Assembly (NCBI GenBank): GCA_029263055.1
Contig: JAJCYG010000036.1
Location: forward strand, 6,708-70,707
Origin: Actinomycetes bacterium
GTDB taxonomy: Bacteria; Auribacterota; JAJCYG01
Direction: 5' to 3'
DNA length: 64,000 nt
Shown here: positions 16,940 to 64,000 of the stretch, in pieces
How positions within the stretch are numbered: the first letter of the stretch is position 1
How the letters are laid out: the number at the start of each line of letters is the position of its first letter
Translations under genes and position numbers: made by a program
The notes under the pieces: model-generated
Told to the model about the DNA's origin: nothing
What the model saw: only the letters and a program-made list of their open reading frames with translations
Database searches by the model: none

Positions 16940-17467
16940 TTATTTTGTTCGAGTTAGTTCGATAACAGTTGCATTTGCTCGCTTTCCTTCTTCATAATAA
17001 GCCCATTCATGCTTGATGTTCTTATTATCTTTTAAGGTAATGCTAAGGCTATGCATATGAGGTTCTTTAATCAAGTTGCGTGGATTAAGCCGTGAGTAAT
17101 CAAGAACAATTTTATTTGGTTCTGATTTTTTTAGCGTCATGATCGGTTGATTGCCTAAAGCGCAATAGTGAGTCATGATGAGCTCTCCATTGCGATCATG
17201 GTAAATAGAAACCATTTCTTGTGGCGTGCCTGGAAAGAGTGTTTCAACGATGGCGCTATCATTAGAGGTAAGTCTATACTCGGCAGTGATGGGTTGTTTT
17301 TTTTCTGTATCAGGCATAGGCATCTCGCCTTTCCAACTCCCTTTTAACATTTTGAGTTGTTCAAATTCTTTTGAACCGGTATAGGGTTCTTTGGGATGCC
17401 CTTTTTGTGCTAAGGCGGGTAGAGCTATTAATAACAGTAAAACTAAAGTGCTCATAAGTATTTTCAT
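16940..17467 (-). CDS. Secreted protein of unknown function
   Basis: 175 aa with signal peptide MKILMSTLVLLLLIALPALA. Its stop overlaps the start of the upstream transporter gene (ATGA), so the two are co-transcribed. Confidence 0.5.
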   Translation of the reverse strand: MKILMSTLVLLLLIALPALAQKGHPKEPYTGSKEFEQLKMLKGSWKGEMPMPDTEKKQPITAEYRLTSNDSAIVETLFPGTPQEMVSIYHDRNGELIMTHYCALGNQPIMTLKKSEPNKIVLDYSRLNPRNLIKEPHMHSLSITLKDNKNIKHEWAYYEEGKRANATVIELTRTK

Positions 17468-35430: not shown

Positions 35431-37170
35431 TTATTTCAGCTTTTTTCTGAAGGGGAGGAGGCCGAAAAGAGCTGAGCCTAGAAGGAAAAGTGTGGCTGGT
35501 TCTGGGTTGACACCGACTCCAAATGGAGATAAAGAAGCACTGGCAAAGGATGCTGTGAGTGTGTTGCCCACAGTGTCTCGGCTAAGAATCGTTCCTTGTT
35601 CAAGTGTGACCCCACCAATCAAATGGAAAATTTGAAGTTGTTCTTCAGTATAACCAAGTGCGCCGATTTGGGCATCAAAGTCTGCTTGTTCATAACTTAA
35701 GACAAGCGTCATTCCGTTTCCTGCAGTGAATGTGGCTGTGGAAGCAATTTCAAAAATCGATGTGCTGATTAAAGCTCCTACCGCATCATCGCTAAGAAAG
35801 GAATCAATTACACCTTGATCCACAACAAGGGTTTTAGTGGTGTCTCCATTAGCAGTGACAGTGCCAAACTGAACCGTGTCATCTCCAACTAAATCGACTA
35901 AAACATCAGTCCCTATGAGAGTGTTATTAAATGTGAGGAGGCCTGTTTCAGCATAAACATCATTTCCTTTATCAAATGTGTCGACAAAGTTTGTCCAGGT
36001 AATAACCCAGTTGCCTGTATCATTGAGGGCCACTTTAGGACGTGGCAAGTTTTGTGAAAAGTCACTACGCGTATCATGAGTTGTTGTATCAATGGAGAAT
36101 TGTCCTCCGTTGGCTGTTCCGCTAGAATCAAATGAGCGAGCGTAAACCGTGTCTGTTGTGGCCCCGTCATATCGGTTCCAAGTGACGATAAAGTTACCAC
36201 TTGAATCAATAGCAATATCAGGATGTTCATTGTTTGAAAGAGCAAGGTCATTGACTTGGAAGTCTGCTCCTAATGCGTTCCCAGAACTATCGAATCGACG
36301 AGCTTTGATGTTTCCATCTGTTGCTGCCCAAACCGCAATAAAGTTTCCTGCATCATCCATTGCGACTTGTGGATCGCCTGTAGATGAATTTGTTCCTGTT
36401 GAAGAGTTGATTTGAAATTGAGATTTGCCATTAATGATGGTGTTACTTGAGTTATATAAAGAACCAAAGAGTGTGCCGCTAGATGACCAAAGAGCTAACG
36501 CGTTTCCGTTTGCAGCAAGCGTAATATCATTAGAGAAAAAGTTAGCAGATAAATCTGCTCCTGTAGCAGCAGTAATTCTACTCCCAACAGCTGTACCAGA
36601 AGAATTATAGCGTTGAAAATTATGGATCGCACCACTGTGCACCATCCAGCTAACGATTGAGTCACCTGAATCATTAATCGCAACAGAAGGAGCGCTTTGA
36701 GCACCAGCTCCGCCATGGACTGTGACTTCAGTTCCGGGTAGTCCTGTACCAAAAGAGCCTAAATTTCTAAAAAGATCTGTTCCTGAAGCAAAAGGGTTAA
36801 TTGATATTCCAACAATATAATTTCCTGAAGCATTCATGGCTGTGCTAGAGGTTGAATAATTATAGTTTGAAAGATGAGGACCTTTTAAAGAGACTTCTGT
36901 GCCATCGACTGCTGTTGTGTTTGCATTAAAGCGTCGTGAATAAATTTGTGCAGTTGGACTTCCGGTTCCTAGACTGGGTACGTCAAAGTTAGAATCATCA
37001 TTCCACGAAATAAGAAATTGCCCACTCGAATCAATGCCAACTTCAGGACGGTATTGGTTAAAGGCATCAATGGTGTTTACTTTAAATGCTGCTGAAAAGG
37101 ATAGAGAAGGAAAGAGGACTCCTAGAACAAAACTTCCAAAAACCACTGCTGAAAAATTCTTAGATAACAA
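35431..37170 (-). CDS. Large secreted repeat protein (DSSGNF-x-V-x-W-type propeller-like repeats) with a PEP-CTERM sorting signal
   Basis: Signal peptide. Recurrent blocks IDSSGQFLISW, INDSGDSIVSW, MDDAGNFIAVW, IDSSGNFIVTW, LNDTGNWVITW. C-terminus NPEPATLFLLGSALFGLLPFRKKLK. Confidence 0.65.
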   Translation of the reverse strand: MLSKNFSAVVFGSFVLGVLFPSLSFSAAFKVNTIDAFNQYRPEVGIDSSGQFLISWNDDSNFDVPSLGTGSPTAQIYSRRFNANTTAVDGTEVSLKGPHLSNYNYSTSSTAMNASGNYIVGISINPFASGTDLFRNLGSFGTGLPGTEVTVHGGAGAQSAPSVAINDSGDSIVSWMVHSGAIHNFQRYNSSGTAVGSRITAATGADLSANFFSNDITLAANGNALALWSSSGTLFGSLYNSSNTIINGKSQFQINSSTGTNSSTGDPQVAMDDAGNFIAVWAATDGNIKARRFDSSGNALGADFQVNDLALSNNEHPDIAIDSSGNFIVTWNRYDGATTDTVYARSFDSSGTANGGQFSIDTTTHDTRSDFSQNLPRPKVALNDTGNWVITWTNFVDTFDKGNDVYAETGLLTFNNTLIGTDVLVDLVGDDTVQFGTVTANGDTTKTLVVDQGVIDSFLSDDAVGALISTSIFEIASTATFTAGNGMTLVLSYEQADFDAQIGALGYTEEQLQIFHLIGGVTLEQGTILSRDTVGNTLTASFASASLSPFGVGVNPEPATLFLLGSALFGLLPFRKKLK

Positions 37171-42626: not shown

Positions 42627-42688
42627 CGTCATCCTGAGCAAAGCGAAGGATCTTGGATAGATTCTTCGGCTTCGCCTCAGAATGACGA
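42627..42688. repeat. Dispersed palindromic repeat: two inverted arms of GCGTCATCCTGAGCAAAGCGAAGGATCTT (arm 2 is CGTCATTCTGAGGCGAAGCCGAAGAATCT on the opposite strand)
   Basis: Arm 1 at 42627-42653. Inverted arm 2 at 42659-42688. Intergenic, between the cyclophilin and EVE genes. A third arm occurs at 54463-54492. Confidence 0.5.
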
Positions 42689-45093: not shown

Positions 45094-46374
45094 ATGCTTA
45101 AACTCAGGTCAAGATTTGTGTATCATAGCCAAATGACTAAAGGGATTCTCTCTTATCAGGATGTGCGCCAGCAAACAGTGGCACTCTGTGCTTCGCTTAA
45201 AACAGAAGATTTTTGTGCTCAAAGTATGCCTGATGTCAGTCCCACTAAATGGCATTTAGCCCACACCACTTGGTTTTTTGAAACCTTTATTTTATCTAAA
45301 GCAATGGCACGTTACCGCTCTTACAATGACTGCTTTAAATATCTTTTTAATTCTTATTATAATGGAATTGGAGAGCAGTTTCCTCGTGAAAGCCGCGGTC
45401 TTTTGTCGCGTCCAACCGTTGAAGAGGTGCTTGATTATCGTAAAAAGATTGATCAGCAAATGGTTGCACTTCTACGTAATAAGAAACAGAAAGAGAAGTG
45501 GAATTATTTTGTGCAATTAGGATTGCATCATGAGCAGCAGCATCAAGAATTAATCATAACGGATATTAAGCATGTTTTTTCTTTAAATCCACTCCAACCT
45601 GTTTACAAAAAGAAGGCCCCAAAAAGAAATGTTTCTGTAGGAAAAATGAACTGGGTTCGTTTTAATGAAGAAGAAACATTATTGGGGCATGAGGGTGTGG
45701 GGTTTCATTTTGATAATGAAGGGCCTTTGCATCGTGCGACGTTAATCCCTTTTCAGATTGCGAATCGCTTGGTTACTAATGGAGAATACCTTAAGTTTAT
45801 CGAGGCAGGTGGTTACAAAAAGTCTCAGTATTGGCTTTCTAAAGGTTGGGAAGTGGTGCAAAGAGAAAAGTGGAATGCTCCTCTTTATTGGAAAAAAGAG
45901 GGGAAAGAGTGGTTTGTGATGACGCTGACAGGCATTAAAAAAGTAAATACAAGTGAGCCAGTCTGCCATGTCAGTTATTATGAAGCCGATGCGTTTGCCA
46001 GTTGGATGAATGCGCGATTGCCTTCTGAAGCAGAGTGGGAGCGTGCTTCGCAAGAGGTTTCGCTAAAAGGAAATTTTGTGCAGAAAAAAAGTTTTCATCC
46101 TCAACCCGTTGAAAAAAAGAATCAACAGGTTTTGGATCAACTTTTTGGAGATGTGTGGGAGTGGACACGTTCGCCTTATGTTCCTTATCCTGGTTATGTG
46201 GCTTCTAAAACAGCTGTTGGAGAATACAATGGCAAGTTTATGTGTAACCAAATGGTGTTGCGCGGTGGATCGTGTGCAACCTCTCAAGATCACATCCGTT
46301 CAACATACCGAAACTTTTTTTATCCAGAAGATCGCTGGCAGTTTAGCGGGATTCGATTGGCAAAGGACTTATGA
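45094..46374 (+). CDS. egtB: Ergothioneine biosynthesis sulfoxide synthase EgtB (DinB_2 plus FGE-sulfatase domains)
   Basis: The N-terminal WHLAHTTWFFETF has DinB/EgtB iron-ligand His residues. The C-terminal GDVWEWTRSPY...LRGGSCATSQDHIRSTYRNFFYPEDRWQFSGIRLAKD is an FGE-sulfatase fold. 426 aa. Confidence 0.8.
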   Translation: MLKLRSRFVYHSQMTKGILSYQDVRQQTVALCASLKTEDFCAQSMPDVSPTKWHLAHTTWFFETFILSKAMARYRSYNDCFKYLFNSYYNGIGEQFPRESRGLLSRPTVEEVLDYRKKIDQQMVALLRNKKQKEKWNYFVQLGLHHEQQHQELIITDIKHVFSLNPLQPVYKKKAPKRNVSVGKMNWVRFNEEETLLGHEGVGFHFDNEGPLHRATLIPFQIANRLVTNGEYLKFIEAGGYKKSQYWLSKGWEVVQREKWNAPLYWKKEGKEWFVMTLTGIKKVNTSEPVCHVSYYEADAFASWMNARLPSEAEWERASQEVSLKGNFVQKKSFHPQPVEKKNQQVLDQLFGDVWEWTRSPYVPYPGYVASKTAVGEYNGKFMCNQMVLRGGSCATSQDHIRSTYRNFFYPEDRWQFSGIRLAKDL

Positions 46375-47291
46375 GTTTTAAAGAAGATGTGGTTACAGGA
46401 TTAGAAAAAGAGCGAAAAGAATTATCGCCCAAATATTTCTATGATCAAAAAGGGTCGCAGCTGTTTGACCAGATTTGCGATTTAGAAGAGTATTATGTCA
46501 CTCGAACTGAATTGGAGATTATGGAGCAGAGTCTTCCTGAGATTGTTGATTTTTTAGGGGAAGAGAGCTTGTTGATTGAGTATGGTAGCGGAAGTAGTGT
46601 AAAAACACGGATGCTGCTCGATGAACTGAAAAAACCTGCTGCTTATATCCCGGTTGATATTTCTCATAAACATTTACAGCAGACAGCTGAAACATTGTCT
46701 CAGAGCTATCCTGATTTAGAGGTGAACCCGGTTGCAGCTGATTTTACCAAGCCATTTTCATTGCCTGAATGTTCTCAAGCCCACGCCAAAAAAGTGATCT
46801 ACTTTCCTGGGTCAACGATAGGCAATTTTAGCCCGACTCAAGCAGAAACAATTCTAAAAGAGATGGCTCATTTGTGTGAGCCTGAAGGAGATCTTTTGAT
46901 CGGCGTTGACTTAAAAAAAGACCGGTCTATTTTAGAATCTGCCTACAATGATTCAAAAGGGGTGACTGAAGCATTTAATCTAAATCTTTTAGAGCGGATC
47001 AATAATGAATTAGGGGCTAACTTTCAATTAGATCAATTTCAGCATCAAGCCATTTATAATGAAAAACAGTGCCGCATTGAAATGCACTTAGTGAGCCAAA
47101 AAGAGCAGGAAGTCTTGATTGAAGAGACACTGATTCGATTTGAACAAAATGAAACTATTTGTACGGAGCATTCATACAAATACTCCATTGAAGAGTTTGA
47201 GCAACTAGCGCAAAAAGCATCCTTTCAATTAAAGAAAGTCTGGACCGATGCCAACCAGCTTTTTAGCCTCCAATATTTGAGCCTAACATGA
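46371..47291 (+). CDS. egtD: L-histidine N-alpha-methyltransferase EgtD
   Basis: KYFYDQKGSQLFDQICDLEEYYVTRTELEIM...LIEYGSGSSVKTRMLLDEL...YIPVDIS is the EgtD signature. The ATG overlaps the egtB stop (ATGA). Confidence 0.85.
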   Translation: MSFKEDVVTGLEKERKELSPKYFYDQKGSQLFDQICDLEEYYVTRTELEIMEQSLPEIVDFLGEESLLIEYGSGSSVKTRMLLDELKKPAAYIPVDISHKHLQQTAETLSQSYPDLEVNPVAADFTKPFSLPECSQAHAKKVIYFPGSTIGNFSPTQAETILKEMAHLCEPEGDLLIGVDLKKDRSILESAYNDSKGVTEAFNLNLLERINNELGANFQLDQFQHQAIYNEKQCRIEMHLVSQKEQEVLIEETLIRFEQNETICTEHSYKYSIEEFEQLAQKASFQLKKVWTDANQLFSLQYLSLT

Positions 47292-48789: not shown

Positions 48790-49827
48790 ATGAAGAAAAA
48801 AGTTTTTGCAATAATCCTGACTGTTTTGCTGGTGGGCGGGCTCTTGTCTCAGATCCAAATTAAAGATCTGGGGGAGTTTGTCCGGGGCTTTTCTATTGCT
48901 GGATTGATTTTGGCTTTTTTGTTTTATGCTATGAGCTATTTTTTCCGGGCTTTGCGCTGGCGCCAGCTTATCTATTCTAAGGCAATTGGGCTAGGCGAGC
49001 TGATGATGATTACTTCAGCCCATATTATGTTTAATAATTTGCTCCCTTCCCGGTCAGGAGAATTCTCCTATATTTATTTGCTTAAGAAGCGCCAAGGTAT
49101 TTCAGGGAGTGAAGGATTGGCTACATTAGTGGCAGCACGGTTTTATGATTTTGCAGTGTTGTCTTCTTTCTTTTTGATCTCAGCCTTCTTTTATATTGGT
49201 AGTTCTAACAAAATGAGTTTGGGTGAAATTGCTATTGGCGCTGTTTTTATTTTGAGCGTGGCAGTTTTAGCGATCTTCAACTTAGAAAAAATTATGGCTG
49301 TTATTTTGTCGGTGGTTCAAAGAATAGGGAAGAAGTTTCGTTTAACTGAAAAAAAATGGATGTCCTTTTTGGTTTCAAAAGGGAATGATGTGTTAGAGAG
49401 TTTTTCTGCCATTAAATCAAAGAAAAAGTTTTTACCTGTGGTCTCGATTTCGTTTCTTGCTTGGGGTTTTAAGTTTTTTGCTTATCTGATTATGTTGCGT
49501 GCCATGTTAGGTGTTGAAGGCGTTTATCCGACATTCTGGATGATTGTTTTGGGAACAACAGCCGCAGAATTGACCACTATTTTGCCTATTCATGGCATAG
49601 GGGGATTTGGCACCTATGAGTCAGCCTGGGCAGGGGCTTTTTACTTGCTCGGCTTTGCTAAAGAGTTGGCCATTAAGACGGCTTTTAGTTTTCATTTGCT
49701 GGCTTTGCTTTACTCTGTTATTTTAGGGGTGGTTTCACTCCTTTTACTTAACCTTAAAAAGGAAAATAAAACGAGTCAAAAAACCGAAAAATCTGATGTA
49801 GAAGGACACATTAAAGTTAATCATTAG
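48790..49827 (+). CDS. Flippase-like membrane protein (lysyl-PG synthase TM-region / UPF0104 family)
   Basis: 345 aa, about 8 TM helices. A conserved RALRWRQL loop follows TM2. It lies directly upstream of an ArnC-like GT2, a common pairing. Confidence 0.55.
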   Translation: MKKKVFAIILTVLLVGGLLSQIQIKDLGEFVRGFSIAGLILAFLFYAMSYFFRALRWRQLIYSKAIGLGELMMITSAHIMFNNLLPSRSGEFSYIYLLKKRQGISGSEGLATLVAARFYDFAVLSSFFLISAFFYIGSSNKMSLGEIAIGAVFILSVAVLAIFNLEKIMAVILSVVQRIGKKFRLTEKKWMSFLVSKGNDVLESFSAIKSKKKFLPVVSISFLAWGFKFFAYLIMLRAMLGVEGVYPTFWMIVLGTTAAELTTILPIHGIGGFGTYESAWAGAFYLLGFAKELAIKTAFSFHLLALLYSVILGVVSLLLLNLKKENKTSQKTEKSDVEGHIKVNH

Positions 49828-49835
49828 GAGCTATT

Positions 49836-50816
49836 ATGTATTTGTCAGTTGTTATTCCAATTAAAGATGAAGAAGAGAGCGTTAAAGAACTCTATACTGA
49901 ATTAGTAGGGGTTCTAAAAAATTTAAATAAGAACTATGAAATCATTATTACAGATGATGGTTCCTCTGACGGCACTTTTTCAGTCTTAAAAGAACTTCAA
50001 GCAAAAGATCCTCATTTAAAAGTGATTAGCTTTCGTAAAAACTTTGGTCAAACTGCGGCCATGGCTGCAGGGTTTGATTATGCGATTGGTGAAATCATTG
50101 TGACCATGGATGGGGACATGCAAAATGATCCCGCTGATATCCCGCGCCTCTTAGAAAAAATTGAAGAGGGGTATGACTTGGTCAGCGGCTGGCGTTATGA
50201 CCGCAAAGATAAATTTTGGACTCGTCGTTTTCCTTCTAAGGTAGCGAATTGGTTGATCTCTCGAATCACCGGTGTGAAGTTGCATGATTATGGTTGCTCG
50301 CTTAAAGCCTTTAAACATGAAGTGATTAAAAATATTGCCCTTTATGGTGAGTTGCACCGCTTTATTCCGGCTGTGGCTGCGTTGATGGGAGTGACCGAAG
50401 CCGAGCTTAAAGTGAACCACCGTTATCGCACCAAAGGAAAATCTAAATATGGATTATCCCGTATTGTGCGTGTGTTTCTTGATTTGATTACAGTTAAGTT
50501 TTTACTCAGCTATTCAACCAAGCCGATTCAAATTTTTGGATTCTTTGGTTTGATCAGTGGGTTTATTGGCTCTGCAGGGGTGGCCCTGGTGATTATTCAG
50601 CGTCAATTCTTTGGCATGAGTGCGGATCGCCCACTCTTGTTGCTGGCCATCTTAATGATTTTTACAGGCTTTCAATTTATTACCTTAGGGTTGATTGCTG
50701 AAATTCAAATCAGAACATATCACGAGTCTCAAGAAAAACCAATCTATGCGGTTAAAGAGGTGCTTGACTCACAATCTCCTGCTGAAAAACAAGAGGACAA
50801 TGAGGTTCTTATTTGA
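49836..50816 (+). CDS. GT2 polyprenyl-phosphate glycosyltransferase, ArnC/GtrB-like (undecaprenyl-phosphate sugar transferase)
   Basis: LSVVIPIKDEE...ITDDGSSDGT...DGDMQNDPADIPRLL...YDRKDKFWTRR...HDYGCSLKA, plus two C-terminal TM helices. Co-linear with ArnC. An SD AGGAG lies 6 nt upstream. Confidence 0.8.
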   Translation: MYLSVVIPIKDEEESVKELYTELVGVLKNLNKNYEIIITDDGSSDGTFSVLKELQAKDPHLKVISFRKNFGQTAAMAAGFDYAIGEIIVTMDGDMQNDPADIPRLLEKIEEGYDLVSGWRYDRKDKFWTRRFPSKVANWLISRITGVKLHDYGCSLKAFKHEVIKNIALYGELHRFIPAVAALMGVTEAELKVNHRYRTKGKSKYGLSRIVRVFLDLITVKFLLSYSTKPIQIFGFFGLISGFIGSAGVALVIIQRQFFGMSADRPLLLLAILMIFTGFQFITLGLIAEIQIRTYHESQEKPIYAVKEVLDSQSPAEKQEDNEVLI

Positions 50817-51523
50817 GCTACGCTTCATTCCCGGTAGTGGTGCTACCAACCTATAACGAGAAAGAAAATATTTCTCACATATTGCCTGAAATTTTAAAGC
50901 AAGATAAACGGATCCACGTCTTAGTTGTGGATGACCATTCCCCAGATAAAACCGCAGACGCAGTTAAAAAAATTCAAAAAAAATATTCTAAGCGTGTTCA
51001 CCTCATCTCTCGCAAAGGGAGAGGGCGTGGAGCAGCTGTGCTCAAAGGTTTTAAAGAAGCACTCAAATTAGGGGCCACCTCCATTTTTGAAATGGATGCC
51101 GACTTTTCGCATAATCCTAAAGACCTGCCTCGTTTTCTTAAAGAAATTGAAAAAGTAGATGTAGTGATTGGCTCTCGTTTTGTGAAGGGGGGCAAGATTG
51201 AACAGCGCGGTTGGCTGAGGAATGTGTTAAGCGATATTTTAAATGAAATGATTCGTTTGCTGCTCGGTTTGAAAATCCATGACACCTCTACAGGGTTTCG
51301 TCTTTTTCGATCTGATGTGATTAAAAAGATAAACACAAAGAAGATTGTTTCAAAAAACTACTCTCTTTGTCCTGAATTACTCTATCGCGCCACTCAATCA
51401 GGCTTTTCCCTCAAAGAGATTCCCATTGTCTTTGTGAACCGCTACGCAGGCAAAAGTAAGGCAAACCTTCACATTGCGATAGATTATTTCTTAACAATCT
51501 TCCGTATCCGCTTCTCTAAGTAA
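50813..51523 (+). CDS. GT2 polyprenol-monophosphate glycosyltransferase (Dpm1/Ppm1-like, soluble)
   Basis: VVVLPTYNEKENI...VVDDHSPDKT...EMDADFSHNPKDLPRFL. 236 aa. TTG start overlapping the upstream stop. Confidence 0.75.
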   Translation: MSYASFPVVVLPTYNEKENISHILPEILKQDKRIHVLVVDDHSPDKTADAVKKIQKKYSKRVHLISRKGRGRGAAVLKGFKEALKLGATSIFEMDADFSHNPKDLPRFLKEIEKVDVVIGSRFVKGGKIEQRGWLRNVLSDILNEMIRLLLGLKIHDTSTGFRLFRSDVIKKINTKKIVSKNYSLCPELLYRATQSGFSLKEIPIVFVNRYAGKSKANLHIAIDYFLTIFRIRFSK

Positions 51524-51532
51524 ATGTTGGTT

Positions 51533-52585
51533 TTATTTTAAAAGTTTCAATCTAGAGACATGTAGCACTTCTTCCACAGAAACATCTTCCATGGCATTTT
51601 GATTGTGGAAATCTTTGGCTTTGATGACCGTTGCTTTGGGGTTGTTGGGATCATTAACGATCGGGTCAGTCGGACCAAAGATGGCGATTTGATTTGAGGC
51701 CATGGTGGCGGCAATGTGCATAGGGCCTGAGTCAGCGCTGATAAAAAGATCAATGCGCGAAGTGAGTTCGGCAAACTGTTTTAAGTCGAGTGTGGGTGCT
51801 AAAAAAACATGATCGCTCTGTTTGATTTGTTGTTGAACAGATTCAGCGAGTTCTTTTTCGCCAGGGCCCCAGGTTAAAATAATATTGACGTTTTCTGTTT
51901 CAATCAACCCATCCGCTAGTGCGACAAACTTTTCAGTTTGCCATCGTTTGTGTGGTTTGCTGGCGCCTGGGTGAATAATCACATTTTTTGAAGTGGTTCC
52001 ATTTTTTTGGTTCATCTGAATTTCGTTTAGAAAAACAGAAATCTTTTCTTGGTCTTTTAAAGAAATATACATAGGTGTGGGGTCTGAGGCCACATTGGGA
52101 ACCCACTTTTGAATCAGAGCTTGATTGCGATCATATCGATTGAGGTCAGGGCTGGCTAAAGGGATTTTCATATTAGTGAAAAGCCAGCTCCATTCTTTGA
52201 CAAACTCGCGTCTAAAGCCGACACGGATTGGGGCTTTGCTTGCCCATCCAATCAAGCCTGTTTTAAAAATGCCATGAAAGTCGAGAACCAGGTCAAAGTC
52301 ATAAGATCTAAGTTGGGCTACAAATTTTTTCCACTCTTGATAAAATGCAGGCCAATTCTTTGGATTTTTACTGAGTTTGGTGAATGTTTTTCTTGGAAAA
52401 AGGATGACCTGGTCAATAGAGGGGTCCCCTTCTAAAACAGGGAGCGATTTCTCTTCAACGCACCACGCAATAAAGGCGCAAGGGTGGTGTTTGCGCAATA
52501 GTGAAACAGCGGAAACGGTTCTGGCCACGTCTCCTATAGCGCTTAAGCGTAGAACTAAGAGTTTGCTTTTAGGTTTAAGTTCCAT
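51533..52585 (-). CDS. GT9-family glycosyltransferase (ADP-heptose:LPS heptosyltransferase-like)
   Basis: The N-terminal LVLRLSAIGDVARTVSAV is typical of WaaC/WaaF/WaaQ. 350 aa. Confidence 0.75.
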   Translation of the reverse strand: MELKPKSKLLVLRLSAIGDVARTVSAVSLLRKHHPCAFIAWCVEEKSLPVLEGDPSIDQVILFPRKTFTKLSKNPKNWPAFYQEWKKFVAQLRSYDFDLVLDFHGIFKTGLIGWASKAPIRVGFRREFVKEWSWLFTNMKIPLASPDLNRYDRNQALIQKWVPNVASDPTPMYISLKDQEKISVFLNEIQMNQKNGTTSKNVIIHPGASKPHKRWQTEKFVALADGLIETENVNIILTWGPGEKELAESVQQQIKQSDHVFLAPTLDLKQFAELTSRIDLFISADSGPMHIAATMASNQIAIFGPTDPIVNDPNNPKATVIKAKDFHNQNAMEDVSVEEVLHVSRLKLLK

Positions 52586-52682
52586 AGTGATTTTTAATGA
52601 AAGATGCTATGATACCAGGTTTAAATAATCGATACTACTAGTTAATGCAAACAGGTTTAAAAGAATAATGCACTTTTAGGAG

Positions 52683-54497
52683 TTGGGCAAAGAAATGCAC
52701 GTCAAGGCGATTCCTCCTGAGTTTGATTTGATTAAGCAGGAGAACAAAACATTTATCTTAAGAAAAGACCTCGCAGCCCAGCTGCTTGATTTAGATGTGG
52801 GGAATCTTTGGGATTGGACAAACGATCCTGAAAAAGAGGTTCAGTACTATAAGGGGCGGATTCCGGCAGCCGCTGTGACGCTTCCTATTGAGGGTGGATT
52901 GCGTGTGGTTTTGCGCCGTTATCATCATGGTGGGGTTTTGGGGCATTTCCAAAAAGATCGTTATCTTTTTTCGTTCCCTCCTTTAAAAGAAATTGCAGCT
53001 TGTGCGTTTGCTCATGATCAAGGTGTGCCTGCGGTTGAAATTTTAGGTGCTGTTCAAGAAAGAGTGGGGCTGTTTAATCGAATCTACTTGATTACGAAGC
53101 ACCTCCCTGAAGGCTCTGATCTAGGCGAGTTTTTTCGTAAACAATATGAACGGGTTAATTGGCGAGAAAAACATCAAATTATTGAAGAGACAGGTAAGCT
53201 GATTCGTAAGATGCACAATGAAGGGCTTTTTCATTCTGATTTGCACTTAAAAAATATTTATATGTCTCAACAGAACGGGACTAAACAGTTTTATTTACTC
53301 GATTTTGACAAAGCACATGTGGTGCCAAACCTTTCTAAAGAGATGCGTTTAAAAAATCTATTGAGACTAGAACGCTACCTGGCTAAATACTTTTCTGAAA
53401 CCTCTATTTTTACTGCTTCTGATCGCATTCGGTTTTTACGTGCTTACTTTGGTTCAAATCAAGAAGCGCGTGAGTTTGTTGAGCGACATATAAAACAGTT
53501 TCAACGTCATGTTAAAACCCATCAACTTTTGTGGTGGAAAAAAGTAGGCGACCCCCATTGGTGGAGCTATATTTGTATAAGAGGGATGGTTGCTGTTTTA
53601 AACTTAGTTCCTGAACAGTTTTCGTACTCATGCTTTGTGCTTATCTCTAAGATAGCTTACCGAATAGTGCCTAAATTACGTCGACGGATTATGAATAATC
53701 TTAATCTTGTTTATAAAGAAACAATGTCACCCGAAGATAAAGAGCGTTTAGCAAAAAATATAGCAAAGCATCTTGCGTTCTCTTTTGCTGAGTTTACCCG
53801 TTCTTTTTCAATGTCGCGAAAAGATCTGCTTAAGGCTCGAGAAAAGTATGAATTTATTGGCAAAGAAAATGTAGAAGAAGGGCTTAGAAGAGGTAAAGGG
53901 ATTTTGTTTTTGGTTTCGCATCTGGGAAACTGGGAACGGCTTAATTTAGTGGAGTCGTGGTTTGATTTTAAATCTTATGCCTTGGCAAAGCAGATAAAAA
54001 ATAAGTGGTTTGATCAATGGGTGCTTGATATCCGTTCGCGGCTTGGGATTAATGTTTTAAAAGCAAATCGAATGAATCGTGAGATTTTACGCGTCTTAAA
54101 AGAAAATAATACCGTAGCTGTGCTGATTGATCAAAACCCTGGAGCGGGTCGGGGTGAAATGATTCCCTTTATGGGAGTTCCGGCACCGACTAACACCGCT
54201 CCTGCCTTTTTTGCGTTAAAATCAGGAGCAACGGTTTTGCCTGCTTTTTGTTTGCGTAAGAGCCCAGGAGTATTTAAGTTTATTATTGATCCTCCTGTTG
54301 AGTTGATCCAAAAAGAGACTTTTCGAGAATCTTTAACAGCGAATACGGAGCTCTTTGCCAAAAACTTAGAAGAGTATGTGCGTAAAGACCCCGAGCAATG
54401 GTTTTGGGTGCACAACCGTTGGAAAGTGAAAACCAAAAAAGTTAAGAATGACTCCAAAGAGACGCGTCATCCTGAGCGTAGCGAAGGATCTAGTTAA
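52683..54497 (+). CDS. Fusion of a Kdo/WaaP-family LPS kinase domain (N-terminal) and an LpxL/HtrB-family lipid A late acyltransferase domain (C-terminal)
   Basis: Residues about 1-270 have LFHSDLHLKNIYM...YLLDFDKAH (kinase catalytic and metal-binding loops). Residues about 300-590 have FLVSHLGNWER and the C-terminal DPEQWFWVHNRWK, as in lipid A lauroyl/myristoyl acyltransferases. The last 9 codons (TRHPERSEGSS) are encoded by a copy of the dispersed palindromic repeat. Confidence 0.7.
   Translation: MGKEMHVKAIPPEFDLIKQENKTFILRKDLAAQLLDLDVGNLWDWTNDPEKEVQYYKGRIPAAAVTLPIEGGLRVVLRRYHHGGVLGHFQKDRYLFSFPPLKEIAACAFAHDQGVPAVEILGAVQERVGLFNRIYLITKHLPEGSDLGEFFRKQYERVNWREKHQIIEETGKLIRKMHNEGLFHSDLHLKNIYMSQQNGTKQFYLLDFDKAHVVPNLSKEMRLKNLLRLERYLAKYFSETSIFTASDRIRFLRAYFGSNQEAREFVERHIKQFQRHVKTHQLLWWKKVGDPHWWSYICIRGMVAVLNLVPEQFSYSCFVLISKIAYRIVPKLRRRIMNNLNLVYKETMSPEDKERLAKNIAKHLAFSFAEFTRSFSMSRKDLLKAREKYEFIGKENVEEGLRRGKGILFLVSHLGNWERLNLVESWFDFKSYALAKQIKNKWFDQWVLDIRSRLGINVLKANRMNREILRVLKENNTVAVLIDQNPGAGRGEMIPFMGVPAPTNTAPAFFALKSGATVLPAFCLRKSPGVFKFIIDPPVELIQKETFRESLTANTELFAKNLEEYVRKDPEQWFWVHNRWKVKTKKVKNDSKETRHPERSEGSS
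54463..54492 (+). repeat. Third arm of the dispersed palindromic repeat (CGCGTCATCCTGAGCGTAGCGAAGGATCTA), inside the 3' end of the kinase-acyltransferase CDS
   Basis: 28 of 30 nt are identical to arm 1 at 42627. It supplies the stop-proximal codons of one gene and the SD region of the next. Confidence 0.5.
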
Positions 54498-55506: not shown

Positions 55507-56693
55507 AGATTGCCATTGTGATTAAAGACTGTGCGTTTGCAAAAGGGGGAGCTGAACGGTATGCTTCGCGGTTGTTGTGGCGTTTGTCTGAATCAACCAC
55601 GCATGACGTGCACCTTTTTTCTCATTCGTGGGATGCTAAGTTAGAAGAGCGGATTCAATGCCATTTTGTTTCTTATACACATAAGCCTGGTTTTTTAAAA
55701 CAGATCAGCTTTGCTAAAAATGTAACCAAACAACTTGAGAAATATAACTTTGATTTGGTTTTAGGGCTGACTCAGTTTTTACCTATGGATATTTTTAGAA
55801 CCGGAGGTGGGTTCTTTTTATCTTATATAGAGCATCGTTTTACTGATTTAAGAACACGTTTCTTAAAGCGATGGACCCCAAAAGCAGCAGCCATGATTCG
55901 ATTAGAAGAAAAAATTGTGCATTCGCCTAAGACGTATTCTTTTATGGCTAACTCACATATGTGTCGTGATGAACTTGTGAATCGCTACAAGGTCAATTCT
56001 GATCGCATTCATGTGATTTACAATGGAGTGAATCACAAACAGTTTAATACGGTTCATATGCGTCGGCATCGTCAGGCGATTCGCAAGCAATATGGTATTT
56101 CAGAAGAAGAGGTCTTAATTTTATTTGTGGGTAATGGGTTTAGCCGAAAAAATTTAGACACTGTGATTCAGATGGCTAGTAAATTAGGTGAAGATCTAAA
56201 TCGTTTTCGATTTGCAGTTTTAGGTAAAGGGCGTATTGGTCTTTACCGAAGAAAAGCCAAAGAGTTAGGGGTTGAGTCTCAATTTCTTTTTGTTGGTCCC
56301 CAAGAAAATGTGCATGAGTGGTATTTGGCTTCTGATGTGTTGATGCACCCTGCCATTTATGATCCTTGTTCCAATGCTTGTTTAGAAGCGCTCTCATGTG
56401 GTTTGCCTGTGCTCACCACAAAAACCAATGGAGCTTCTCACTGGATTGAAAATGGAACCAATGGATATGTGATTGAGGATCCGCGCGATGCGGTTGCTTT
56501 TGCTGAAAAGGCAAAAATATTTTTAGACACGGTACGAAAAGAACGGATGCGTCATGACGCCCCAGGAACCGTGGTTTCTTTAACTGATGAAAACCATGAT
56601 GCTGCCTTGATTGAACTGCTTGAAAAAACATATCAACTCAAACAAAAAGTTGAACATTTAAAAGTAGAGTCTCCTTTTTATGCCAAGCATTGA
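55503..56693 (+). CDS. GT4-family glycosyltransferase (WaaG/RfaG-like)
   Basis: C-terminal E-x7-E region ...PCSNACLEALSCGLPVLTT. Confidence 0.7.
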   Translation: MKIAIVIKDCAFAKGGAERYASRLLWRLSESTTHDVHLFSHSWDAKLEERIQCHFVSYTHKPGFLKQISFAKNVTKQLEKYNFDLVLGLTQFLPMDIFRTGGGFFLSYIEHRFTDLRTRFLKRWTPKAAAMIRLEEKIVHSPKTYSFMANSHMCRDELVNRYKVNSDRIHVIYNGVNHKQFNTVHMRRHRQAIRKQYGISEEEVLILFVGNGFSRKNLDTVIQMASKLGEDLNRFRFAVLGKGRIGLYRRKAKELGVESQFLFVGPQENVHEWYLASDVLMHPAIYDPCSNACLEALSCGLPVLTTKTNGASHWIENGTNGYVIEDPRDAVAFAEKAKIFLDTVRKERMRHDAPGTVVSLTDENHDAALIELLEKTYQLKQKVEHLKVESPFYAKH

Positions 56694-57513
56694 AATCTTT
56701 CAACCTTACAAGCAAGCCTTTCTAGAAAAAGACCTAGAAACCTTTGAACAAGTCATGGCTCTTGTTAGTGATCAAACCTTTAAAGAAAATAAACACCGCA
56801 GTGTGGTTAAGTTTTCTCTTTGGTATGAAGACAAAGAGAGTGCTTTCTTTTGCAAACGCCATTTCAAACCAGAAAACAAAGACAAGTGGAAAGATCTCTT
56901 AGCCTTTAAATGGTCTCCATCCGACGGAAAACAAGAATTAGATAACATTAAATTAGTGACTGAACTAGGTATTCCAACCATGACCCCTGTTGCATGGGGA
57001 GAAGAAGAAGGCTCTTCTTTTAATCGAAAATCATTTTTAGTTACAGAGAGTTTAGGTGAGCTAGAACGCTTAGAAGATTATCTCGTGCGTAAATACGGCA
57101 AAGAATTAAATGCTCAAGAACGAAAAGAAAAACAAGCCTTAATCCAAAAAGTAGCAGAGATGGCAAAAAAGTTTCACGGTGCCAACCTCTGCCATCGCGA
57201 TTTTTACTGCGGCCACTTTCTAGTTAAAGAACAAAAAAACGATTTACCGATTCTTTACTTAATTGATTTGCAACGTGTGCGTAAGTATTGTTATTTAAGA
57301 CGCCGCTGGAAAACCAAAGACTTAGCCGCCTTAAACTTTACCGCCTTTCCCGAAGCCATCTCAAAAACCGACCGCCTTCGATTCTTCTACACCTATTTAA
57401 ACGTAATGAAACTAACCCGCTCCCACAAACGCTGGATTAACCAAATCCTCACCCGCACCCAAAAAATGGACCGCCACACCTCCAAAAAACGCCAAAAGTA
57501 CCTAAATTCTTAG
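56680..57513 (+). CDS. Kdo/WaaP-family lipopolysaccharide kinase (InaA/KdkA/WaaY-like)
   Basis: LCHRDFYCGHFLV...ILYLIDLQRVRK. 277 aa. Confidence 0.7.
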   Translation: MPSIEIFQPYKQAFLEKDLETFEQVMALVSDQTFKENKHRSVVKFSLWYEDKESAFFCKRHFKPENKDKWKDLLAFKWSPSDGKQELDNIKLVTELGIPTMTPVAWGEEEGSSFNRKSFLVTESLGELERLEDYLVRKYGKELNAQERKEKQALIQKVAEMAKKFHGANLCHRDFYCGHFLVKEQKNDLPILYLIDLQRVRKYCYLRRRWKTKDLAALNFTAFPEAISKTDRLRFFYTYLNVMKLTRSHKRWINQILTRTQKMDRHTSKKRQKYLNS

Positions 57514-61539: not shown

Positions 61540-62459
61540 TTAACTGGAACACCGTTCAGTTGCTGCAGAAATCTCTTCAATCGATAGAGGGTTTGAAGAG
61601 CTCTCTATCGATTGAAACGATTGTGGTTGATAATGGTTCTTCTGATGAAAGTGTGGCTTTGGTTAAAGAAAAGTTTCCAAAAGTTCTCCTTATAGCCAAT
61701 TCAAAAAATGAGGGATTTGCTACAGCCGTTAATCAAGGACTTCAGAAAAGCCAAGGGCAATCCATTTTATTGCTTAATAGTGATGCGCAATTAGTTGAAG
61801 GAACCTTGGAAAAATTAAAGAAAGTTTTAGATTCAGAGCCTAAAATAGGGATGGTTGGAGCTGATTTAGTTTATGAAGATGGCCGTCATCAAAATTCAAT
61901 CGATCATTTTCCCAACTTGGCAACAGAGCTCTTTAATAAAAGTGTGCTGAAACTCTTTTTTTCTAAGTGGTATCCTGGCAAACGTTCAGGTTTTGATCAG
62001 CCGATTAAAGTCCCTTCGTTGATAGGGGCAGGTCTCTTTCTTAAAAGAAAAATGGTTGAAGAGATAGGTCTCTTGGATGAAGGTTATTTTTTCTTTTTAG
62101 AAGAGACAGACTGGTGTTATCGAATGAGACAGCAGGGATGGACGTCATTCTTTGTTCCTGAAGCTAAAATTATTCATCTTCAAGGGCAAAGTGCTAAAAA
62201 GCATCCGTGGCGTTCACGTGTTGAATTTTATCGTTCACGTTATCGTTTCTTTAGAAAGAACTATGGTTTCTTTTCATATTTGATTTTGCTTGTTGGATTG
62301 AATATTCGTATTTTGTTGGAGCTTCTATTTACAGGATTAGTTGTGTTACTTTCATTAGGGTTTTGGCGTGATGGTCGAAAACGATTTTCACGTTATGCTG
62401 CTTTATTGGGTTGGCATCTTATGGGGTGCCCAAAAAAGATGGGGCTTTCGGTTTTGTGA
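61515..62459 (+). CDS. GT2-family glycosyltransferase (paralog of 59312..60292)
   Basis: ISIIIVNWNTVQLL...VVDNGSSDES...NEGFATAVNQGL...LLLNSDAQL. Confidence 0.75.
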   Translation: MAEISIIIVNWNTVQLLQKSLQSIEGLKSSLSIETIVVDNGSSDESVALVKEKFPKVLLIANSKNEGFATAVNQGLQKSQGQSILLLNSDAQLVEGTLEKLKKVLDSEPKIGMVGADLVYEDGRHQNSIDHFPNLATELFNKSVLKLFFSKWYPGKRSGFDQPIKVPSLIGAGLFLKRKMVEEIGLLDEGYFFFLEETDWCYRMRQQGWTSFFVPEAKIIHLQGQSAKKHPWRSRVEFYRSRYRFFRKNYGFFSYLILLVGLNIRILLELLFTGLVVLLSLGFWRDGRKRFSRYAALLGWHLMGCPKKMGLSVL

Positions 62460-64000
62460 TGAAAAATGAAACAGTAGAGATTAATACAAAAGGGGTTTTG
62501 TGGCATACCACAGAAGAGTATCGTTTTTTAATCGATGCTCTAGATGGAACCTTGGCTCAAGTTGAGAAAAAAGATGTGGTGAAGAGTTCTTCTATTCGTC
62601 GTGTGGTTACAGTTAAGATCCCTCGAGAAAACGACGAATTTGAAATTTTTGTCAAACACCATCGTCTGCCTTGGAAAGAGGCGCTAAAAGATTTGCTCCA
62701 TATATCAAAGGCTAGGAATGAGTGGAAGTTTACGCATCAAATATCAGACCTTCAAATTAAGACTGTTGTCCCTCTAGCGATGGGTGAAAAGAGAAAATAT
62801 GGTCTTTTGCGTGAAAGTTATTTTATTTCAAAACGTATTCCTAAATGTGAGACTTTGCATGAATTTGTGATGAAGGAATCTGAAAAAAAACATGATTTAT
62901 CTTTTATAAAATGGAAAAGAAAACTGATCAAAGATTTGGCTATAATGCTTTCTGATATCCATAAAAAAGGAATTGAGCACAGAGATTTGCATGCAGGTAA
63001 TATCTTAATTGAATGGATAAATGATAAAGAATATAAATTAAGACTTTTAGATTTAGATCGAGCCCATATTTATCCGAAGCTTTCATTTAAAAAGAGAATG
63101 GTTGAGCTGACTCTTTTTAATATGTTTTTTACGCTATTTATTAGTCGAACAGATCGTCTTCGGTTTTTTAAAGAGTACTATCGACAGGATCCAAATCCTT
63201 GGCGTGGGTATCAAAGAGGGGCTCGTCAAGTTGAGGCAAAAACATTTAAAATGGTAAACAAGCTTTACCGCCGACGAGATAGAATGTGCCTTCGTCGAAA
63301 TAAGTATTTTTCTCGATTTTTAGTTGGGTCTATTTCAGGTTATTGCCGAAAAGAACCTGCTCAAACAGCGTTACTCGATCTTTTGAAACACCCTGAAGAT
63401 CTTTTAGACCCTATTCATTCAGAGCCGATTAAAAAGGCGAGTGAGAAATCAGTTCGTAAGTATCCACTTAAATTAAAAGATAAAACTTTGGATGTGGTCA
63501 TTAAGAGTTATCAAACAGCAGATCGGTTTGGTCGATTTAAAGATCTTTTTAGAAATTCTCGAGCCAAGCGAAGTTGGATTGCCGCCAATGCGCTTTATCA
63601 AAGAAAAATTCCAACTTCTTTTCCGCTTGCTTGTTTTACAGAAAACCGGTGGAGCTTTTCTAAAAAAAGTTATTTTATTTCAGAGTTTATCCCAACAGCA
63701 TCGGTTTTAGTTCTTTATTTCAATAACCGATTTAAAGGACCTTTAAGTAAAGAAGAGCGCTTTATCAAAAAAAGACTTTTAACTCAATTTGCGCGCTTTG
63801 TGCGCCACATTCATGAACTGTGGATCTATCATGGAGATTTAAAAGCGAGCAATATCCTAATTGAAGAAACATCACCGGGAGAGTTTCAATTCTATCTCAT
63901 TGATTTAGATCATGTAAAAATCTGCTGCACCATTAATCGTTTTCAACGCTATCGTAATTTAATGCAGGTCAATAAGTCCTTTTTAGACCGCTCAGCCCTT
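62459..64000 (+). CDS. Tandem Kdo/WaaP-family LPS kinase protein, partial (more than 513 aa; runs off window end)
   Basis: Absent from the track because it has no stop. ATG at 62459 overlaps the upstream stop (TGATG). The frame stays open to 64000. Domain 1 has IEHRDLHAGNILIEW...LRLLDLDRAHI. Domain 2 has IYHGDLKASNILIEE...FYLIDLDHVKI. Confidence 0.65.
   Translation, partial: MKNETVEINTKGVLWHTTEEYRFLIDALDGTLAQVEKKDVVKSSSIRRVVTVKIPRENDEFEIFVKHHRLPWKEALKDLLHISKARNEWKFTHQISDLQIKTVVPLAMGEKRKYGLLRESYFISKRIPKCETLHEFVMKESEKKHDLSFIKWKRKLIKDLAIMLSDIHKKGIEHRDLHAGNILIEWINDKEYKLRLLDLDRAHIYPKLSFKKRMVELTLFNMFFTLFISRTDRLRFFKEYYRQDPNPWRGYQRGARQVEAKTFKMVNKLYRRRDRMCLRRNKYFSRFLVGSISGYCRKEPAQTALLDLLKHPEDLLDPIHSEPIKKASEKSVRKYPLKLKDKTLDVVIKSYQTADRFGRFKDLFRNSRAKRSWIAANALYQRKIPTSFPLACFTENRWSFSKKSYFISEFIPTASVLVLYFNNRFKGPLSKEERFIKKRLLTQFARFVRHIHELWIYHGDLKASNILIEETSPGEFQFYLIDLDHVKICCTINRFQRYRNLMQVNKSFLDRSAL

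Follow-up and report, generated by a model that had tools for sequence, protein, structure and literature searches.

A KdkA-type sugar kinase and an LpxL-type lipid A acyltransferase joined in a single polypeptide

Here we show that a single protein, encoded on a 64,000-nucleotide stretch of DNA (hereafter called the window), combines a KdkA-type sugar kinase with an LpxL-type lipid A acyltransferase. An earlier note on this DNA had placed a Kdo-kinase-type and an LpxL-type domain in one polypeptide, and Pfam detects both of them: first Kdo (PF06293; residues 74-255 in a 604-residue numbering, E=1.1e-27, 97.3 bits against a cutoff of 21.3), and then Lip_A_acyltrans (PF03279; residues 294-581 in the same numbering, E=9.5e-45, 153.5 bits against a cutoff of 22.3). 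The analysis bears out both the reality and the conservation of the fusion, as well as the family and subfamily to which each half is assigned; the protein has intact catalytic motifs and a confident structural model. We consider it probable that selection has maintained the protein as a truly bifunctional enzyme, which phosphorylates Kdo on Kdo-lipid IVA and then carries out a secondary acylation.

The gene lies in a single unbroken open reading frame (ORF) at 52683-54497 on the plus strand, which amounts to 604 amino acids when counted from the TTG at which the ORF listing starts. The extent originally given, 52683-54497, is thus correct in that the frame is uninterrupted, but translation almost certainly begins at the ATG at 52695, judging from the sequence, because an AGGAG at 52678-52682 abuts the TTG at 52683 without a gap and because all homologues have the N-terminus MH.KA.P; on these grounds the TTG was ruled out as the start codon. 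The complete fused gene then spans 52695-54497 (+) and encodes 600 amino acids plus a stop, the length of a protein that is 100% identical to it (P0001). Unless stated otherwise, residues are numbered from this ATG.

In the reading that we favour, both domains would work at the cytoplasmic face of the inner membrane, where they would be held by a re-entrant helix-break-helix located between them. The KdkA-type domain would transfer a phosphate from ATP onto the (probably single) Kdo of Kdo-lipid IVA, after which the acyltransferase domain would move a secondary acyl chain from acyl-ACP, the acyltransferase of single-Kdo bacteria accepting only the phosphorylated intermediate. The fusion would hence join two consecutive, obligatorily ordered steps in one membrane-anchored polypeptide, which would give the two activities a fixed stoichiometry and a shared location and might allow direct hand-over between them. 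Experiments have shown that LpxL depends on the phosphorylation of Kdo by KdkA in V. cholerae, H. influenzae and B. pertussis (PMC3178793, citing Hankins & Trent 2009), and kdkA has been reported to be essential in B. pertussis (PMC10743493). Because both halves score below the NCBIfam equivalog cutoffs, the exact substrates are ones that we infer. The same applies to the identity of the phosphate acceptor (Kdo), to which step comes first, to where the acyl chain is placed and how long it is, and to any channelling.

The kinase domain comprises residues 1-280 (52695-53534, +), and its Pfam Kdo match corresponds to residues 70-251 (nucleotides 52902-53447). By HMM ranking, signature residues and a neighbour-joining (NJ) tree, this half is classed as KdkA-type and not WaaP-type. 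Firstly, the top-scoring kinase model is that of KdkA (PRK01723), with 91.6 bits, which is below its equivalog cutoff of 142, against 49.5 for the WaaP heptose(I) kinase model (PRK15123, cutoff 170). The kinase domains of the relatives score 93-101 bits against PRK01723, and the KdkA model outscores the WaaP model for the window protein and for P0002, P0004, P0017 and P0019; the distant fusion P0028 scores equally against both. Secondly, three signatures are common to the fused kinase and to KdkA-named proteins: R-x-Y-x-x-G-G in the beta3/Gly region (RRYHHGG, 52914-52934, +), the catalytic loop H-x-D-L-x-x-x-N (HSDLHLKN, 53232-53255, +), and the metal-binding motif D-F-D, equivalent to DFG (53301-53309, +). 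The latter two are invariant within the clade formed by the window protein and its three closest relatives. E. coli WaaP and WaaY differ at these signatures, WaaP types having a Lys and no GG in the first of them. Thirdly, the fused kinase falls in one clade with KdkA-named proteins (80% bootstrap), apart from the WaaP clade (92%), in an NJ tree whose internal nodes are weakly supported; the KdkA references of the tree and of the signature comparison bear automated, not experimental, names and do not include a biochemically characterised KdkA sequence. Furthermore, when a profile was built from these kinase domains, the proteins that it recovered included ones named 3-deoxy-D-manno-octulosonic acid kinase but not a single WaaP by name. 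Pfam Pkinase (PF00069) gives only a partial match (residues 131-223, from the same Pfam scan as the matches above) of 23.9 bits, under its cutoff of 31.7; the N-terminal half, for which a grouping with eukaryotic-like protein kinases had been the stated danger, therefore groups with the Kdo kinases.

Known KdkA proteins (PRK01723), which have been studied in H. influenzae, V. cholerae and B. pertussis, are stand-alone enzymes of about 240 amino acids, whereas the predicted kinase described here is covalently joined to an acyltransferase and has an additional N-terminal beta/alpha extension of about 50 residues, as well as a long C-terminal helix. WaaP (RfaP) shares the Pfam family and the fold, and among solved structures the one of WaaP with acyl-ACP (PDB 6DFL) comes closest to the N-terminal half (Foldseek E=3.3e-11). 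WaaP differs in having a Lys in beta3 and the motifs H-R-D-x-Y-x-x-H and D-L-x-R.

The fused gene is located within an LPS-core cluster of heptosyltransferase, WaaP and O-antigen-ligase genes and, as had been noted at the outset, sits between two GT9 genes (51533-52585, -, and 54448/54499-55506, +). The first, a divergently transcribed GT9 heptosyltransferase (PF01075), has heptosyltransferase I as its best match, with a TIGR02193 score of 151.1 that is under the cutoff of 185.3, and it occupies the same place in L006, L014 and L015. The second, which likely starts at the ATG at 54499 (MKILVRMTNWVGD), is a heptosyltransferase II (WaaF; TIGR02195 234 against a cutoff of 134.6). The same operon carries, 2 kb downstream of the fused gene, a separate WaaP-type LPS core heptose kinase (56680-57513, +; PRK15123 157.5, cutoff 170), which joins E. 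coli WaaP in the NJ tree with 92% bootstrap. Because this dedicated kinase is already present, the fused kinase is not redundant. A two-domain kinase begins at 62372. No waaA gene was found in the 64-kb window, and Rfam detected no rRNA, tRNA or other RNA in it. The host lineage is an uncultured bacterium with a GC content of about 40%.

This richness in LPS kinases raises the alternative that the fused kinase domain phosphorylates another position of the LPS, such as a heptose (like WaaP or WaaY) or another core sugar, and is merely co-localised with the acyltransferase, with no substrate passed between them. The Kdo/WaaP family holds several specificities, the kinase does not reach the KdkA equivalog cutoff, and LPS kinases recur in multiple forms: in addition to the two kinase genes just mentioned, there is a three-domain kinase (P0015), the first domain of which is nearer to the fused kinase than any other relative outside its clade, and L036 has a WaaP-type kinase in an lpxL-GT9-kinase operon. 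On the other hand, the signature residues and the tree placement are of the KdkA type, the operon already has its WaaP-type kinase, and the biochemical dependence cited above ties LpxL to the phosphate on Kdo and not to that on heptose. A protein in which the two domains are fused in the reverse order, LpxL before Kdo (P0019), also speaks against this alternative, since it directly follows kdsB-kdsA and lies near a waaA-type Kdo transferase. We therefore regard phosphorylation at another position as unlikely, and retain Kdo as the probable acceptor.

The two domains are connected by a long helix (residues 255-277; 53457-53525, +) that is gapless in all four clade members, followed by a hydrophobic helix-break-helix, PHWWSYICIRGMVAVLNLVPEQFSYSCFVLISKIAYRI (residues 287-324; 53553-53666, +), which corresponds to the N-terminal membrane anchor of LpxL/LpxM. 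In the AlphaFold (AF2) model of the protein (pLDDT 90.6, pTM 0.79), helices 287-304 and 307-324 are broken at VP, and the hydropathy of the segment is moderate (maximum KD19 1.45). The hydrophobic segment has an ATP-dependent kinase on one side and an acyl-ACP-dependent acyltransferase on the other, and therefore cannot cross the membrane once. Thus, a membrane-spanning linker was ruled out by hydropathy, by the helix-break-helix of the model and by the cytoplasmic cofactors that both domains need, and the anchor is predicted to be re-entrant (monotopic). The N-terminus of E. coli LpxM is cytoplasmic and re-entrant (PMC6133551), and a cytoplasmic fusion at the N-terminus is therefore topologically possible. 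The fusion in turn provides comparative evidence for a re-entrant (monotopic) anchor in the LpxL family, for which cysteine labelling has until now been available only for E. coli LpxM (PMC6133551).

The structural likeness to WaaP suggests another role for the N-terminal half. WaaP is stable only when tightly bound to acyl-ACP (PMC6147952), and the structure that best matches this half is that of WaaP crystallised with acyl-ACP (PMC6147952). Moreover, acyl-ACP is the donor of LpxL, and the C-terminal helices of the kinase half appear, as read from the sequence, to be rich in Arg and Lys, like the ACP-binding surface of WaaP. By analogy, the kinase-like domain might mainly be a module that docks acyl-ACP or stabilises the acyltransferase, with or without kinase activity. 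However, acyl-ACP binding has been demonstrated for WaaP only and not for KdkA-type proteins, and the kinase catalytic residues are all invariant, both across relatives with 52-61% identity and in the independent fusions, which indicates selection for phosphotransfer. A principal role in docking is thus improbable, and we continue to view the N-terminal half as a likely Kdo kinase.

The acyltransferase domain (residues 290-577; 53562-54425, +; PF03279, 153.5 bits) keeps the H-x4-E catalytic dyad and the fold of LpxM, which bears out the earlier assignment to the LpxL type. The dyad lies in HLGNWE (residues 409-414; 53919-53936, +), which is invariant in the clade and aligns with HFGTWE of A. 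baumannii LpxM (AbLpxM; PDB 5kn7; 5knk is its E127A variant). AbLpxM is matched both by sequence (E=5.6e-19) and by structure (Foldseek E=8.3e-16, TM(target) 0.73). Like LpxL and LpxM, the protein has the hydrophobic helix-break-helix ahead of the catalytic domain and the C-terminal motif PEQWxWxHxRW. The named motifs HSDLHLKN, DFD and HLGNWE and the terminal DPEQWFWVHNRWK are all found in the protein. It differs from LpxL and LpxM in that its anchor is internal and theirs is N-terminal, and in that it scores below all equivalog and subfamily cutoffs, including those of the LpxL models PRK08419 (158.6 bits, equivalog cutoff 248) and TIGR02207 (91.5 bits, cutoff 297.8). V. cholerae LpxL (Vc0213) needs the Kdo phosphate (PMC3178793).

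These low scores would also fit an acyltransferase whose substrate is not lipid A but another lipid: PatA-type phosphatidylinositol-mannoside and lysophospholipid acyltransferases are also members of the Lip_A_acyltrans family, and PatA structures and the 'lysophospholipid acyltransferase' model PRK08905 match as well. Such a substrate is nevertheless very improbable, given that LpxL and LpxM provide the top HMM and PDB matches and that the gene is fused to an LPS kinase within an LPS-core cluster.

Relatives of the window protein show that the fusion is not peculiar to one genome. The same fusion, with 52-61% identity, a gapless junction and identical synteny, is present in P0002 (two NCBI MAG assemblies), P0003 (Logan DRR538836/DRR538840) and P0004 (Logan SRR22387768), and the catalytic residues of both halves are invariant across the clade. 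A word-indexed homologue search returned only the four clade members, the alignment query included. No relative above 35% identity was found in a scan of JGI metagenomes, and a scan of genome contigs gave only distant LpxL genes (Elusimicrobia, Planctomycetia, Calditrichaceae and others). Outside the clade, P0017 and P0028 are further Kdo-to-LpxL fusions, with about 27% identity and another genomic context. Beyond the clade, a Kdo-kinase/LpxL fusion has thus arisen independently at least twice more, in two unrelated lineages, one of which has the domains in reverse order (P0019). The pairing is found in 4 of the best 150 of 18,735 matches (1.84 billion representatives searched); LpxL-LpxL tandems, LpxL-GT9, DUF374-LpxL and multi-Kdo-kinase proteins were also found, none of which pairs a kinase with an acyltransferase. 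As a point against our reading, kinase relatives that stand alone have only a loose link to lpxL in L016 (about 1.2 kb apart) and none in L043, L045 and L062. The lpxL-GT9-kinase operon of L036 was considered as an unfused ancestor and ruled out, its kinase being WaaP-type and not KdkA-type.

The explanation that a frameshift or a lost stop in assembly or sequencing joined two adjacent genes is effectively refuted: the window protein itself is on a single contig, and an A-rich run at the second junction of P0004 (LpxL/GT9) makes artefacts conceivable at that other junction, but the kinase-acyltransferase junction, at which a search for a frameshift or stop had been proposed and neither was seen, is in-frame and gapless in at least five independent assemblies of three other species-level relatives, about 16-29% of the linker columns are invariant, the model is confident through the linker, and the fusion recurs in other lineages, as the earlier note had suggested looking for.

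Fusing consecutive or related steps of the LPS pathway in one polypeptide is a feature of other multi-domain LPS enzymes, and HldE and ArnA are textbook bifunctional examples. The literature search for a described KdkA-LpxL fusion yielded no paper, and the fusion is not among the entries of a review of bifunctional kinases. The proposal that it is undescribed thus appears to stand, although public protein sets contain the fusion without a name for it, and other genomes have it too. It is a rare fusion and not a new kind of enzyme; the component enzymes and their dependency were already known, and the known pathway is unchanged by it. As a 'Rosetta-stone' fusion, it provides independent support for a rule that is known from experiments but has been little studied, namely that the LpxL of single-Kdo bacteria acts only once Kdo has been phosphorylated by KdkA, and it suggests that stand-alone KdkA and LpxL may physically interact in pathogens. 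A polypeptide with both activities would also be a handy reagent for the structure and enzymology of late lipid A synthesis and for lipid A engineering.

A bolder extension, which we judge quite unlikely, is that the protein is part of a physically coupled 'assembly line' for the inner core and lipid A, in which the kinase domain, besides phosphorylating Kdo, would hold acyl-ACP as WaaP does and so offer both donor and acceptor to the LpxL site. Heptosyltransferase II may belong to the same line in some lineages, being joined to the same polypeptide in the triple fusion P0004. If true, this would be the first evidence of channelling or of an obligate complex across core phosphorylation, late acylation and heptosylation, and would imply that KdkA and LpxL, where they are separate proteins, form a complex in pathogens such as V. 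cholerae, H. influenzae and Bordetella.

Finally, the protein ends in a lineage-specific disordered tail (residues 583-600; 54441-54494, +). A half-copy of a small repeat element, a second copy of which is found at 42628 in the window, is inserted at 54464-54492 (core 54466-54490) and gives rise to the final residues, about 17 in number, VKNDSKETRHPERSEGSS. This tail is missing from the relatives, and its residues 589-600 have a pLDDT below 50 in the AlphaFold model and are predicted to be disordered.

The fusion gene lies in a single open frame on the forward strand (52683-54497), which encodes 604 aa when counted from a TTG. Translation almost certainly begins instead with the ATG at 52695, because the AGGAG at 52678-52682 abuts the TTG and all homologues begin with MH.KA.P. 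The resulting 600-aa product is identical to database protein P0001, and its numbering is used here except for the two Pfam ranges, which follow the 604-aa frame. Pfam identified a Kdo/WaaP-family kinase (PF06293, residues 74-255; 97.3 bits, E=1.1e-27) and a lipid A biosynthesis acyltransferase (PF03279, residues 294-581; 153.5 bits, E=9.5e-45), with scores so far above the gathering cutoffs that chance resemblance is ruled out. The proposal of an earlier note that one polypeptide combines the two domains is thus borne out: each half has its Pfam match in one uninterrupted frame, and the quoted motifs were all found where expected.

The best NCBIfam model for the N-terminal half is the KdkA equivalog PRK01723, at 91.6 bits, which is below its curated cutoff of 142; WaaP reaches 49.5 bits and Bud32-type models at most 26 bits. 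KdkA also outranks WaaP in P0002 and P0004, members of the same fused clade (P0001-P0004), and in P0017 and P0019, fusions from outside it; the ranking is ambiguous in P0028, another outside fusion. A kinase-domain profile built from fused domains and stand-alone relatives retrieved 88 proteins, whose informative source names, besides generic InaA/Bud32/RdoA labels, were all "3-deoxy-D-manno-octulosonic acid kinase"; none of the 88 was named WaaP. We aligned the retrieved proteins with E. coli WaaP, E. coli WaaY and the window's other kinases. The KdkA-named proteins share with the fused domains an R-x-Y-x-x-G-G beta3 region (RRYHHGG in the fusion, LRHYHRGG and similar in the named proteins), the catalytic loop H-x-D-L-x-x-x-N and the D-F-D motif, whereas E. 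coli WaaP, the window kinase at 56680-57513 and a kinase on contig L036 carry H-R-D-x-Y-x-x-H and D-L-x-R motifs together with a beta3 Lys. When 272 columns were used for a neighbour-joining tree with 100 bootstraps, all fused kinase domains and their stand-alone relatives grouped at 80% bootstrap with the KdkA-named proteins, references whose names are automated and none of which is biochemically characterised, and WaaP formed a separate group (92%). Together with a Pfam Pkinase match below threshold, the tree and the signatures place the N-terminal half among Kdo kinases and not among eukaryotic-like protein kinases, as the earlier note had it.

The ACYLTRANSFERASE half of the fusion is best matched by LpxL-type models, PRK08419 (158.6 bits) being followed by other lauroyl-acyltransferase models and TIGR02207 (LpxL/LpxP) reaching 91.5 bits, every score being below its equivalog cutoff. 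Among solved structures it comes nearest to the LpxM of A. baumannii (5kn7, E=5.6e-19), whose HFGTWE aligns with the HLGNWE of the fusion; the deposited catalytic mutant 5knk carries an E-to-A change there. The HLGNWE dyad is invariant across the fused clade. No second LpxL homologue was found within the 64-kb window.

A functional dependence between the two activities is well established. According to a passage of PMC3178793 that cites Hankins & Trent 2009, a monofunctional Kdo transferase of V. cholerae supplies lipid IVA with a single Kdo, which KdkA then phosphorylates, and LpxL (Vc0213) performs secondary acylation only after the phosphorylation; the same passage reports this Kdo-phosphate requirement for the LpxL homologues of H. 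influenzae and B. pertussis. B. pertussis cannot do without kdkA unless it is given a bifunctional Kdo transferase from E. coli (PMC10743493). By analogy, the fused kinase would phosphorylate Kdo on the lipid IVA intermediate at the cytoplasmic face of the inner membrane, where the fused acyltransferase would next add a secondary acyl chain; two consecutive steps in one protein would be the simplest reading, and channelling between them is conceivable. This reading agrees with the flanking genes, which by NCBIfam encode a GT9 that resembles heptosyltransferase I but scores below cutoff, a WaaF equivalog (234 bits versus a cutoff of 134.6) and a separate WaaP-type kinase. The sub-threshold heptosyltransferase I could be of the OpsX/HptA kind, recognising Kdo-phosphate, a lead taken from bioRxiv 10.64898/2026.06.09.731171. 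That the fused kinase phosphorylates another acceptor is rather unlikely, its points of support being the score below the equivalog threshold and the abundance of LPS kinases at this locus. It is improbable that the kinase half serves as a scaffold or acyl-ACP-docking module, as a WaaP/acyl-ACP complex (PMC6147952) might suggest, since its catalytic residues are perfectly conserved, which points to an active kinase. An acyltransferase acceptor other than lipid A is very doubtful, as both the best matches and the gene context speak otherwise.

Among 5.8 billion clusters, a word-indexed search turned up the same build in only four proteins: P0001 from the window itself, P0002 (61% identical to it; two NCBI MAG assemblies), P0003 (61%; Logan assemblies of two DDBJ runs) and P0004 (52%; one Logan assembly). 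No gap interrupts their alignment from residue 1 until the acyltransferase domain ends. This holds for the inter-domain stretch too, where 29% of the columns are invariant over residues 253-286 and 16% over residues 287-324. All clade contigs share the order divergent GT9, fusion, GT9, GT4 and Kdo-family kinase, which continues on the longer ones with methyltransferase, GT1, GT2, Wzy_C ligase, GT2 and a two-domain Kdo kinase. A frameshift in a single assembly cannot account for a gapless junction and a gene order that recur in all clade contigs, so that an artefact, including the frameshift or stop between the halves that the earlier note had considered, is effectively excluded.

Two further features concern the ends of these genes. 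A REP/MITE-like small element has a full intergenic hairpin copy at 42627-42687 (arms CGTCATCCTGAG / CTCAGAATGACG), and a half copy, GTCATCCTGAGCGTAGCGAAGGATC, is inserted at 54464-54492, past the LpxL domain and ahead of the ATG with which the downstream GT9 starts; the fusion protein has thereby gained about 17 disordered residues, and the ATGA stop/start overlap of its relatives is lost. P0004 (L008 441-3182, Logan SRR22387768) is a 913-aa triple fusion of Kdo kinase, LpxL and heptosyltransferase II on one 5-kb contig, with its second junction in an A-rich run and the usual ATGA overlap absent; a genuine fusion and a homopolymer error are both possible.

The combination of Kdo kinase and LpxL is rare yet recurrent. 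When 1.84 billion representatives were searched exhaustively with HMMER, 18,735 matched at E<=0.001, and among the best 150 of these, both domains were present only in P0002, P0017, P0028 and P0019. P0017 and P0028 have the order Kdo kinase-LpxL at about 27% identity, in a neighbourhood unlike that of the window, between ybeY and a pseudouridine synthase gene. In P0019 the LpxL domain comes first and the Kdo kinase second, so that at least one fusion event must have been independent; the differing genomic context and tree position of P0017 and P0028 suggest a third. The P0019 locus (L010 573-8448, GCA_016213885.1) is the strongest contextual link of this fused kinase type to Kdo: kdsB, kdsA and the fusion gene form an operon in which the last part of kdsA overlaps the fusion gene. 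Both kdsB and kdsA belong to the CMP-Kdo pathway, and 3 kb downstream there is a waaA-type Kdo transferase. Most other matches of about 600 aa among the best 150 of the 18,735 are LpxL-LpxL tandems. The LpxL-family fusions noted (P0009-P0011, P0018, P0024, P0025, P0076, P0145, P0154; P0014; P0117/P0006; P0144; P0050; P0099) comprise, besides this commonest type, LpxL-GT9, LpxL-Elm1-like, DUF374-LpxL, LpxL-HAD phosphatase and DUF362-ferredoxin-LpxL. A JGI metagenome scan gave no relative above 35% identity. Our full-text literature search found no description of a KdkA-LpxL fusion, and the fused proteins stand unnamed in public collections. The novelty lies in the domain architecture, since each domain is well known by itself and so is the functional dependence between the two; the fusion is a Rosetta-stone confirmation of the known KdkA-LpxL coupling and potentially useful as a reagent.

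The fusion also bears on membrane topology. An AlphaFold2 model (68-sequence alignment) has a mean pLDDT of 90.6 and a pTM of 0.79, which suggests, without proving it, that the domains hold a defined mutual orientation. Foldseek matched its C-terminal half to LpxM and PatA and its N-terminal half to WaaP, then Bud32/PRPK, and no solved chain spanned both. In the model, the two domains are separated by a long helix (255-277) and then a helix-break-helix (287-304/307-324, break at V-P), which aligns with the beginning of the Pfam acyltransferase model and whose 19-residue hydropathy peaks at only 1.45. The DPHWWSYI...NLVPEQ of the fusion resembles the N-terminus of E. coli LpxL, HPRYWLTW...QLPYP (PMC6133551). 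Cysteine accessibility showed E. coli LpxM to have a cytoplasmic N-terminus and a re-entrant hydrophobic segment, and the same topology was proposed for LpxL and LpxP (PMC6133551). From established enzymology, we infer that the ATP-dependent kinase before this segment and the acyl-ACP-dependent transferase after it are both cytoplasmic, so the fusion is feasible only with a re-entrant anchor. It therefore offers independent comparative support for a re-entrant (monotopic) topology of LpxL-family enzymes.

Other multidomain kinases were observed. A two-domain Kdo-family kinase of about 560 aa, whose first domain groups with WaaP, is the last gene of the LPS cluster in the window (62372-64000, running past its end) and on contigs L006, L007 and L014. 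A related 854-aa protein, P0015 (L012), has three kinase domains, the first of which is KdkA-like and, among relatives outside the clade, stands nearest to the fused kinase; its gene, like the fusion, is divergent from a GT9 gene.

Elsewhere in the window, Rfam gave no hit at gathering score over the 64 kb, whether to tRNA, rRNA, riboswitch or any other family, and the large ORFs at 12088-13899, 17464-19446 and 35431-37170 had no NCBIfam or Pfam match. Adjacent genes at 45094-47291 encode DinB_2 plus FGE-sulfatase and Methyltransf_33 (376 bits), which we take to be an EgtB-type domain set and an EgtD-type histidine methyltransferase; this suggests ergothioneine biosynthesis. Finally, an ArnT-like lipid IVA aminoarabinosyltransferase homologue at 8146-9579 (under cutoff, at 166.6 bits) and, directly upstream of the core cluster, a conserved LPG_synthase_TM gene with two GT2 genes (48790-51523) hint at additional lipid A/core modification.
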